Assembly: GCF_003334335.1 (NCBI RefSeq) | Contig: NZ_QOWQ01000167.1 | Reading direction: 5' to 3' (one strand) | Length of the DNA stretch: 600 nucleotides | Source: Escherichia coli | GTDB lineage: Bacteria; Pseudomonadota; Gammaproteobacteria; Enterobacterales; Enterobacteriaceae | Shown here: piece after piece, positions 1 through 539 of the stretch | How positions within the stretch are numbered: the stretch's first letter is position 1 | How the letters are laid out: each line of letters begins with the position of its first letter | Notes under the pieces: generated by a model | Told to the model about the DNA's origin: nothing | Seen by the model: the letters and a program-made list of their open reading frames with translations, nothing else | Database searches by the model: none | Position numbers and translations under genes: made by a program

Positions 1-191
1 AGACACTGGTCCAGCCACTTCAGGTAATCATCGTCGCCCTTCCACTGGTTATCCCAGCCCTCAGGCTTCACTTTAAAGTACGGCGGGTCCGTGACTATCA
101 GGTCAACAGAATTTTCGGGTAACGACCGGATAAATTCCAGGCAGTCGGCGTTGATTAACTCACAACTGGATATTTTTACAGTATTAAGCAT
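1..191 (-). CDS. DNA amino-methyltransferase (probable N6-adenine, beta-class), 5' portion only; the gene runs off the left edge of the window
   Basis: Hand translation of the reverse complement from the ATG at 191..189 gives MLNTVKISSCELINADCLEFIRSLPENSVDLIVTDPPYFKVKPEGWDNQWKGDDDYLKWLDQCL, uninterrupted to position 1. An in-frame TGA sits immediately upstream (197..195), so the ORF cannot start earlier. The motif 'SVDLIVTDPPY' (DPPY encoded at 89..78) is the catalytic motif IV of amino-methyltransferases; its position ~35 residues from the N-terminus is the beta-class arrangement (YhdJ/CcrM/M.PvuII-like). D rather than S before PPY favours N6-adenine over N4-cytosine. This ORF is absent from the supplied track, presumably because it has no stop codon inside the window. 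Confidence 0.85.
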   Translation of the reverse strand, partial: MLNTVKISSCELINADCLEFIRSLPENSVDLIVTDPPYFKVKPEGWDNQWKGDDDYLKWLDQC

Positions 192-202
192 GGATCATTA
201 AG

Positions 203-210
203 CCTGTCTC
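203..210 (-). promoter_or_regulatory. weak candidate Shine-Dalgarno region for the methyltransferase gene
   Basis: Minus-strand 'GAGACAGG'; the AGG (205..203) is 11 nt upstream of the ATG at 191, a long spacer with weak complementarity. No better SD is visible. Confidence 0.3.
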
Positions 211-223
211 TGATAGGCTCATT

Positions 224-242
224 CTGCTTTTGCGCAAAGCAG
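224..242. repeat. short palindrome (7-5-7), candidate operator or leader hairpin upstream of the methyltransferase gene
   Basis: 'CTGCTTT' (224..230) and 'AAAGCAG' (236..242) are exact reverse complements separated by 'TGCGC'. Lies 33..51 nt upstream of the methyltransferase start codon. Confidence 0.45.
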
Positions 243-283
243 TGGGCCTGAGGTTTGCTTGTGATCCGGACGCATGAGCAGAT

Positions 284-314
284 GGCTGGTGAGTGCCCCT
301 AACACCCACCAGCC
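284..314. repeat. GC-rich inverted repeat / stable hairpin, function unknown
   Basis: 'GGCTGGTGaGTG' (284..295) pairs with 'CACcCACCAGCC' (303..314): 12 positions with one mismatch (292/306), 7-nt loop 'CCCCTAA'. Not followed by a T-tract on either strand, so not a canonical terminator. Confidence 0.55.
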
Positions 315-327
315 GCCCATTTACCAC

Positions 328-355
328 AAATAAAAAAGCCTTCACTGCGGAAGGC
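328..355 (-). terminator. putative Rho-independent terminator of the 65-aa ORF
   Basis: Minus-strand transcript would read GCCUUC-CGCAGU-GAAGGC (6-bp stem 338..343 / 350..355, 6-nt loop) followed directly by UUUUUUAUUU (337..328). The stem is short (4 GC pairs of 6), hence moderate confidence. The ORF's stop codon is embedded in the stem. Confidence 0.5.
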
Positions 356-539
356 GTCTGTAACAACCGAACTGATAGTCTGCCAGACCCGCCATAACCA
401 GCTGGGTCAGTATTAACTGGCAGCGTTCGCGTGAAAGGTAAGTATTCTGCGCAATCTCCCCGACTGTCGCCGGTTCGGTGGCACTTAATTCATTAAACAC
501 CACTCTGGCGGTTTCTGTCATATCCTGCTGTTTTAGCAT
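342..539 (-). CDS. small (65 aa) hypothetical protein, putative winged-helix/HTH DNA-binding regulator
   Basis: Part of the supplied 77-aa minus-strand ORF (342..575). I place the start at the ATG at 539..537 (MLKQQDMTETARVVFNELSATEPATVGEIAQNTYLSRERCQLILTQLVMAGLADYQFGCYRRLPQ) because it has an SD-like 'AAGGG' (552..548) 8 nt upstream, whereas the track's start at 575 is a TTG with no usable SD spacing. The stretch 'TVGEIAQNTYLSRERCQLILTQLVMAGL' has the helix / turn / recognition-helix pattern seen in winged-helix regulators. The stop TGA (344..342) lies inside a terminator-like hairpin. Coding status is moderately supported; the functional call is by eye only. Confidence 0.6.
   Translation of the reverse strand: MLKQQDMTETARVVFNELSATEPATVGEIAQNTYLSRERCQLILTQLVMAGLADYQFGCYRRLPQ

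Follow-up and report, generated by a model that had tools for sequence, protein, structure and literature searches.

In phage Mu, the start of mom lies in a translation-inhibition structure that is opened by a small zinc-finger protein called Com (PMC6483171; PMC3299994), and in Mu-like prophages the place of mom beside com-like genes is taken by non-specific adenine methyltransferases (PMC3299994). M.EcoGII is a non-specific adenine methyltransferase of 349 aa (PMC5778455; 349 residues are also given in PMC11551740); it is deleterious under constitutive expression and is not expressed in the lysogen, and Murray et al. named the methyltransferase of phage 1720a-02 as very similar to it (PMC5778455). 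Other described arrangements place a short reading frame or a folded leader ahead of a start codon. The bar minigenes of the lambdoid phage lambda consist of two to six codons with an ATG and a stop, have a functional Shine-Dalgarno (SD) sequence and show a defined phenotype in pth-defective hosts. In mok/hok, a highly structured mRNA carries an upstream ORF that runs over the start of the gene for a toxic product, and the mok ORF is conserved and required for hok translation. Start-sequestering leaders also include riboswitch expression platforms and RNA thermometers.

The DNA considered here, a 600-nt stretch of an Escherichia coli contig (the window), carries on its minus strand the sense sequence of a late-operon module from a lambdoid prophage, in which a structured leader of about 130 nt precedes a DNA adenine methyltransferase gene. 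The closest analogue of this leader is com-mom of phage Mu. Both loci combine a harmful late DNA-modifying enzyme, protection of phage DNA from restriction and a small gene directly upstream, and in both the start region of the modification gene falls within or beside the stem of an RNA structure, one that is predicted to be inhibitory in the present case. There are also differences. Mu has the Com zinc finger upstream whereas the present locus has an unrelated 65-aa protein and a terminator between it and the leader; the Mu structure is a short hairpin pair and the present one a multi-helix domain; and mom is controlled by C, Dam and OxyR whereas the module studied here belongs to lambdoid Q antitermination. 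The CxxC...CxxC signature of Com is absent from the 65-aa protein, which contains two cysteines and no CxxC, and this protein was rejected as a Com homologue since it has no zinc-finger signature and matches only the family phrog_331. The present locus is outside the Mu com-mom system.

An earlier note on this DNA drew attention to a four-codon mini-ORF that overlaps the start of the methyltransferase gene, and proposed that it could modulate initiation there or be a coincidence. In length, ATG plus stop and lambdoid origin it resembles the bar minigenes, but it differs from them in its weak SD, its partly base-paired start and its lack of conservation; its position over the start of a toxic gene in a structured mRNA recalls mok, but it is missing from most relatives that keep both leader and enzyme. 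The leader itself shares with riboswitch expression platforms and RNA thermometers a long-range helix before the AUG, covarying stems and conserved junctions, although it has no Rfam match, no evident ligand or temperature logic and, in place of a canonical SD that could be sequestered, only UGAUC as a match to the extended 16S tail.

Genetic Context of the Locus

Matches to the window occur in 2283 of 5426 complete E. coli genomes and in many phages, including Stx2 phages, phiP27, SfV, mEp460 and cdtI. Annotated relatives show the gene order Q antiterminator, terminator, 65-aa ORF, intrinsic terminator, about 150 unannotated nt, DNA methyltransferase, and then tRNAs, stx or lysis genes. The 65-aa ORF precedes the leader in all annotated relatives, including phages of Morganella, Providencia and Hafnia. 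The module formed by leader and methyltransferase occurs in lambdoid prophages of at least 15 Enterobacterales genera, and across at least 15 genera the distance from the leader start to the AUG is constant (129–134 nt). The features on either side of the leader are the following:

342..539, minus strand: 65-aa ORF, phrog_331 (unknown function), called a TrmB-family regulator in some NCBI records
328..355, minus strand: intrinsic terminator with stem GCCTTCCGCAGTGAAGGC + TTTTTTATTT, overlapping the upstream ORF at its stop codon
184..198, minus strand: four-codon mini-ORF ATG ATC CAT GCT TAA (M-I-H-A-stop), read from the sequence; lineage-specific and judged incidental
1..191, minus strand: 5' part of a DNA adenine methyltransferase, assigned by translation and profile matches to the M.EcoGI/GII family (beta class, DPPY); the CDS leaves the window

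Some observations concern the surroundings of the module in individual genomes. In many Shiga-toxin phages the leader lies directly upstream of the stx genes. A contig from an assembly labelled Chryseobacterium sp. 18061 (L146) carries a typical enterobacterial leader and methyltransferase module, and the label probably reflects contamination or mislabelling. The prophage at locus L001 also harbors hokD (L001:2984-3139), a type I toxin from the family that furnishes the classic example, mok, of an overlapping ORF that gates a toxic gene; its presence is a coincidence of neighbourhood only. Cases in which the leader might serve other genes were also considered and rejected: of the loci that lack the methyltransferase, L153 is a decayed remnant, and L050, L107, L169 and L170 carry only the first hairpin (P1) of the leader.

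The Methyltransferase and its Start

An in-frame TGA (197..195) stands ahead of the methyltransferase ATG (191..189), and this ATG is invariant in 91 of 91 unique relatives. The profile phrog_6025 aligns from residue 1 of the protein (further profile matches being phrog_67 and NF008572), and the YhdJ-type model and solved beta-class methyltransferases (PDB homologues) align from residues 8–15. Together, the stop codon, the invariant ATG and these alignments identify ATG 191 as the true start. The full-length enzyme has 349 aa in L001 and is 95% identical to the methyltransferase of phage 1720a-02. DPPY is found at residues 35–38 and FMGSGS, the C-terminal FxGxG motif, at about 309–314. The protein conforms to the M.EcoGI/M.EcoGII family, which is characterised by an N-terminal DPPY, a central target-recognition domain, the FxGxG, a length of about 349 aa and a prophage location. 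Judged from its sequence and through the phage 1720a-02 link, the window enzyme belongs to this family, and by family likeness it would be a toxic non-specific adenine methyltransferase.

Two relatives of the gene deserve mention on their own account. In Enterobacter sp. Bisph1 (L128:2713-2860) the leader is intact (144.8 bits) and the methyltransferase start is destroyed (CTGATTTAAGAAGAATACTGT); this methyltransferase looks like a recent pseudogene. In phage N15 (gene 52, L167:1456-2589) the deposited gp52 CDS runs from 1735, but the reading frame is already open at 1456, and homology, including the DPPY region, begins at about 1501; going by this homology, the annotated gp52 start looks too far downstream.

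The Mini-ORF at the Methyltransferase Start

The minus strand reads A198 T197 G196, ATC (195-193), CAT (192-190), GCT (189-187) and TAA (186-184), in the context ...GAGACAGGCTTA ATG ATC CAT GCT TAA TAC..., and the methyltransferase ATG lies seven bases 3' of the mini-ORF ATG, in another frame and overlapped by the mini-ORF. The coordinates, frame and overlap given in the earlier note are thus exact, and so is its description of the mini-ORF as the tail of a spurious 60-aa ORF: its four sense codons and stop are the last five codons of a mechanical ORF at 184..366. The same note placed it closer to SD-like purines than the methyltransferase ATG. An AGG (205-203) does lie 4 nt from the mini-ORF ATG, but its pairing to the anti-SD is weak (-3.3 kcal/mol, the median of 55 other phage genes being -6.5) and positions -14 and -13 (counted from the methyltransferase ATG) are unconserved.

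Conservation was followed in 120 IMG/VR loci fetched by a 21-mer of the leader, which yielded 91 unique sequences, and in a species scan with one genome per species (37 hits, at least 15 Enterobacterales genera). At -7..-5 the 91 unique relatives carry the codon CTG in 51 cases, TTG in 20, ATG in 15 and CGG in 5. Base -7 (C in 56, T in 20, A in 15 of the 91) is the most variable of positions -12..-1, and the TGATC that follows at -6..-2 is almost invariant, as is the flanking GCTT. At the species level, ATG at -7..-5 was found in E. albertii alone among about 33 representatives, the others having CTG, TTG, CGG, ACG or AAC. The length of the frame also varies: four codons are confined to the clade of the window, and in other sequences it runs from 7 to more than 20. 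Within this clade, 33 of 35 unique sequences have ATG or TTG with a stop four codons on; the clade is young, its members sharing at least 90% identity. An out-of-frame ATG starting at -12..-1 precedes 6 of 63 annotated CDSs (about 10%) in four related phage loci, and ORFs of at most six codons from such ATGs occur in 3 of the 63 (5%), this locus being one of them.

A regulatory upstream mini-ORF should conserve its start wherever the downstream gene is kept, hold its length and stop position constant and possess its own SD and an accessible start. None of these properties was found here: only 15 of 91 unique sequences and one of about 33 species representatives have the ATG, the four-codon length is confined to the window's clade, and the start has an SD of -3.3 kcal/mol with U197 and G196 paired. 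The proposal that the mini-ORF modulates methyltransferase initiation is hence left without comparative support, and the other option of the earlier note, coincidence, is the one favoured, since the ATG falls on the most variable base, its length and stop are unmaintained outside one clade and the chance rate is about 10%. The mini-ORF ATG appears because base -7, which lies in a loop, is A in one Escherichia prophage clade and stands before a constrained UG, and its TAA appears because methyltransferase codons 2–3 are CTT AAT in the window's clade.

The second codon of the methyltransferase (186..188) shows a peculiar pattern in this clade. Its positions 1 and 2 are hypervariable (CTT, TTT, GCT, GTT, ATT, ACT) and position 3 is always T, the reverse of the usual pattern, with the result that TAA or TGA is kept in the mini-ORF frame; the statistical power of the third-position T is low, roughly (2/3)^5 = ~0.13. 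The 33/35 stop pattern and this T leave room for a role of the mini-ORF in its own clade, which it may have.

A Structured Leader Upstream of the Methyltransferase

What the earlier note overlooked is that the flanks TGATC and GCTT are one strand of a conserved RNA helix. The structured leader occupies 320..192 (minus strand), between the intrinsic terminator and the methyltransferase AUG, and its elements, along with two motifs in its DNA, are the following:

274..320, minus strand: P1, long hairpin of about 18 bp with an internal loop, the most conserved leader segment
313..306, minus strand (late-operon sense strand): Chi octamer GCTGGTGG, exact match, in the 5' arm of P1
257..267, minus strand: P2 5' strand, made of P2a 5' (267..262, GGAUCA), bulge C261 and P2b 5' (260..257, AAGC)
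216..248, minus strand: P3/P4 stacked hairpin inside P2 (P3 248-243/221-216; P4 241-236/230-225)
192..203, minus strand: P2 3' strand, made of P2b 3' (203..200, GCUU), internal loop (199..198, AA) and P2a 3' (197..192, UGAUCC)
193..196, both readings: GATC, a Dam site in DNA, nearly invariant; as RNA, the core of the P2a 3' strand

In the closing helix P2, bases -12..-9 and -6..-1 are paired with sequence that lies some 65 nt further upstream, and the 3' strand of P2 abuts the methyltransferase AUG. U197 and G196 form the first two pairs of P2a, and the A of the internal loop at 198 is the A of the mini-ORF ATG. This arrangement accounts for the conservation pattern around the start: base -7 varies freely because A198 sits in the unpaired 2-nt internal loop of P2, and the near-invariance of TGATC and GCTT comes from their place in the 3' strand of the conserved long-range helix.

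The elements were derived from the MFE fold, RNAalifold and inspection of a 59-sequence non-redundant alignment; the structure, fixed by hand, was then turned into a covariance model and 80 loci were realigned with it. The model scores a single hit in each locus, without exception on the sense strand, and the single-sequence fold is unusually stable (z = -3.4). In pair counts, 93.6% of the cells are paired against 31–44% with slid partners, and 56 compensatory cells contrast with 15.6 +/- 3.1 in shuffles (0/500), figures that are supportive rather than proof, since fitting the alignment to the structure and the relatedness of the sequences make the shuffle statistics overstate significance. 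Double-sided changes occur at 10 pairs, including all four P2b pairs (e.g. AAGC/GCUU versus GGA/UCC). P1 is 96–98% paired and exhibits double changes from U-A to G-C (Hafnia) and from G-C to A-U (Erwinia) along with many G-U-compatible one-sided changes; P3, in which G-C pairs have A-U and G-U variants, is 96% paired, and P4 89%. P2a is 90.5% paired and its central four pairs never covary, both strands being invariant; this invariance could have another cause, such as the Dam GATC, 16S pairing or a protein site. An alignment-free view is given by 111 unique sequences folded singly, of which 83 show -6..-2 paired to the upstream partner that the structure predicts, with a mean P(unpaired) of 0.18 for -6..-2 and of 0.72 for -7. 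Overall, the covariation supports P1 and the P2-P3-P4 domain as predicted RNA structures.

Between E. coli and Morganella, Providencia or Hafnia, the first 48 nt (P1) are 71–90% identical and the remainder of the leader 64–68%, while at the same distances the small ORF retains 55–65% and the methyltransferase gene 65–71%. By this measure the leader is conserved as much as, or more than, the flanking coding DNA, and its junction sequences are strongly conserved. In Hafnia, UGAUC is replaced by ACAUC and P2a is not obvious there. As DNA, the GATC just ahead of the methyltransferase ATG hardly varies between genera, the exceptions being Hafnia (CATC) and two single variants.

A scan of Rfam 15 at E up to 10, including the SAM and SAH riboswitches, gave only chance hits, the best being P26 (16.6 bits where the gathering score is 36, E = 0.77, wrong strand), and neither a description of the leader nor its sequence string was found in the searchable literature. 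It is thus apparently an undescribed variant of the known start-sequestering leaders. Described phage RNAs were compared and set aside: AgvB and AsxR are convergent sRNAs downstream of the moron (PMC4104026), StxS is the PR'-tR' transcript and its paper makes no mention of the methyltransferase, and lambda LPR1/PreS is located between ea10 and ral. A small protein encoded in the leader was likewise rejected, as the ORF from ATG 320 varies from 4 to 58 aa, indels shift the frame relative to the methyltransferase (0, 1 and 2 in 66, 38 and 16 sequences) and the open stretch of the 60-aa frame ranges from 0 to 61 codons. A terminator-like hairpin on the plus strand (201..219) is the reverse complement of leader 216..201 and overlaps the P3 and P2b 3' strands; it faces no gene and is considered spurious. 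Finally, a local hairpin AUCAG/CUGAU that would hide the start was discarded, as its middle base varies freely against an invariant partner.

Ribosome-Binding Signals

The methyltransferase is without a canonical SD sequence throughout its family. The median core anti-SD pairing of the methyltransferase sequences is +0.5 kcal/mol versus -6.5 kcal/mol for 55 other phage genes, and a pairing of -5 kcal/mol or stronger is reached by 0% of the former and 71% of the latter. The sole sizeable 16S complementarity is UGAUC at -6..-2 (-4.8 kcal/mol), which matches GAUCA just 5' of the CCUCC core in the 16S 3' tail, and this segment is the very one that P2a is predicted to sequester. Opening of -18..+14 in the window sequence is computed to cost 18.7 kcal/mol.

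The P1 Hairpin, Chi and a Mosaic Boundary

The invariant leader 21-mer AATGGGCGGCTGGTGGGTGTT includes the Chi octamer (GCTGGTGG) of P1, and Chi is present in the leader of 152 of 160 loci. The octamer runs in the sense of the late genes, which in lambda is the active orientation. It is lost in Hafnia and in some Erwinia, Enterobacter and Morganella sequences, where the P1 pairing is kept, and elsewhere in these loci Chi occurs at 0.50/kb on the sense strand versus 0.21/kb on the other strand.

A mosaic breakpoint lies directly after P1 (about 270..275 in the window; L169:1480-1660, L170:1740-1920, L050). In some Stx and other prophages the 65-aa ORF, terminator and P1 are still present, and their C-to-U changes leave G-U pairing preserved; past the breakpoint, unrelated sequence and a 237-aa helix-turn-helix gene replace P2–P4 and the methyltransferase, and the same tRNAs follow.

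Proposed Mechanism and Alternative Explanations

The reading that we prefer, with a probability of about 0.7, is that the mini-ORF is incidental and that the functional feature at these positions is the P2 3' strand of the conserved leader, which probably limits translation of the toxic methyltransferase. The leader would be transcribed only when Q-modified RNA polymerase passes the two upstream terminators, and P2 would place the SD-less methyltransferase start at the foot of a helix. By occluding this start, P2 would repress translation and probably keep it low or conditional, as suggested by the predicted fold and its conservation. A translation-inhibition structure is the most economical reading, in which leaky or early synthesis would be held to a minimum, and we infer that the reason for such control is the toxicity of the enzyme.

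Translation of the mini-ORF in its own lineage would offer another explanation, in which it modulates methyltransferase initiation either by competing with the true AUG or by termination coupling, the ribosomes that stop at UAA 186..184 melting P2a and re-initiating at AUG 191 in the manner of mok/hok. The finding that 33 of 35 clade sequences start a frame at -7 with ATG or TTG and end it four codons later agrees with it, as do the codon 2 that always ends in T in this clade and thereby keeps TAA or TGA in frame, and the AGG found 4 nt upstream in the ATG class; but the third-position pattern has little power (~0.13) in a clade this young (≥90% identity), and -7 and codon 2 are unlinked (CTG occurs with GCT AAT, and TTG with AAA AAT). 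Most relatives lack the start (CTG, CGG, ACG or AAC) and keep leader and enzyme, and where it exists its SD is weak (-3.3 kcal/mol) and U197 and G196 are paired in P2a, all of which makes this explanation quite improbable. Still less probable, and in our view very doubtful, is that conservation acts at the DNA level, through a Chi/RecBCD-protection site within an inverted repeat or an operator for the adjacent winged-helix protein. P1 is indeed an inverted repeat, carries Chi inside the invariant 21-mer in 152 of 160 loci with enrichment on the sense strand, and is directly followed by the mosaic breakpoint. The 3' arms, however, vary in a G-U-compatible way (U-A/U-G, G-C/G-U) with bulges, which points to an RNA helix on this strand rather than a symmetric protein site; the loss of Chi in Hafnia and Erwinia is accompanied by a second change that restores pairing, and P2–P4 covary yet hold no Chi. 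For P1, a constraint on the DNA could hold in addition to the RNA reading.

The leader might also be a regulated switch instead of a static clamp, with P2 opened by a late-phage or host factor, which we regard as unlikely. The candidates would be the 65-aa winged-helix-like protein, acting as Com does in Mu, or a small ligand of the riboswitch kind, and a helix formed by 279..273 and 263..257 is a possible ON state. This alternative helix is mutually exclusive with the lower part of P1 and with P2, is 71.8% paired (11–43% with slid partners) and shows 28 double-change cells versus 9.9 in shuffles, but it has two central mismatches in the majority clade. The junctions are strongly conserved and the small ORF always stands ahead of the leader; on the other hand, the 65-aa protein has no CxxC pairs and matches nothing beyond phrog_331, which argues against a Com homologue, and together with the terminator and P1 its ORF is also found upstream of an unrelated gene. 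No Rfam riboswitch family was matched, even at E up to 10. A precedent exists in the remodelling of the translation-inhibition structure by which Com activates mom translation (PMC6483171), and in Aeromonas phage phiARM81ld (L166:1329-1544) a methyltransferase homologue has its start overlapped by the gene of a Com-type zinc-finger protein (MNLNELRCGNCSRKL...CPRCK...). The overlap suggests that, in other phages, translation of this enzyme family is controlled in the Com manner. The homologue is 56% identical to the present methyltransferase, and a true Com-like protein was seen only with this distant relative. A bolder version of the switch, slightly less probable again and best taken as a long shot, would make the leader an undescribed class of cis-regulatory RNA gating M.EcoGII-family methyltransferases across Enterobacterales prophages, with lower P1 and P2 as the OFF state, 279..273/263..257 as the ON state, a late-phage protein (possibly the 65-aa one, as a non-homologous analogue of Com) or a metabolite flipping between them, and P1 as a Chi-bearing recombination and mosaic boundary.

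Concluding Remarks

There is no case for annotating the mini-ORF or following it up as a regulatory element. The leader, with its predicted occlusion of the start, is a candidate explanation for the silence of M.EcoGI and M.EcoGII in lysogens and for difficult cloning with the native upstream sequence, at a time when both enzymes are in wide use as research tools. It also adds a candidate structured RNA, outside Rfam, that is present in thousands of E. coli genomes. The locus suggests that lambdoid phages have a mom-like solution of their own, in which terminators and a start-hiding RNA would together control a dangerous anti-restriction enzyme.
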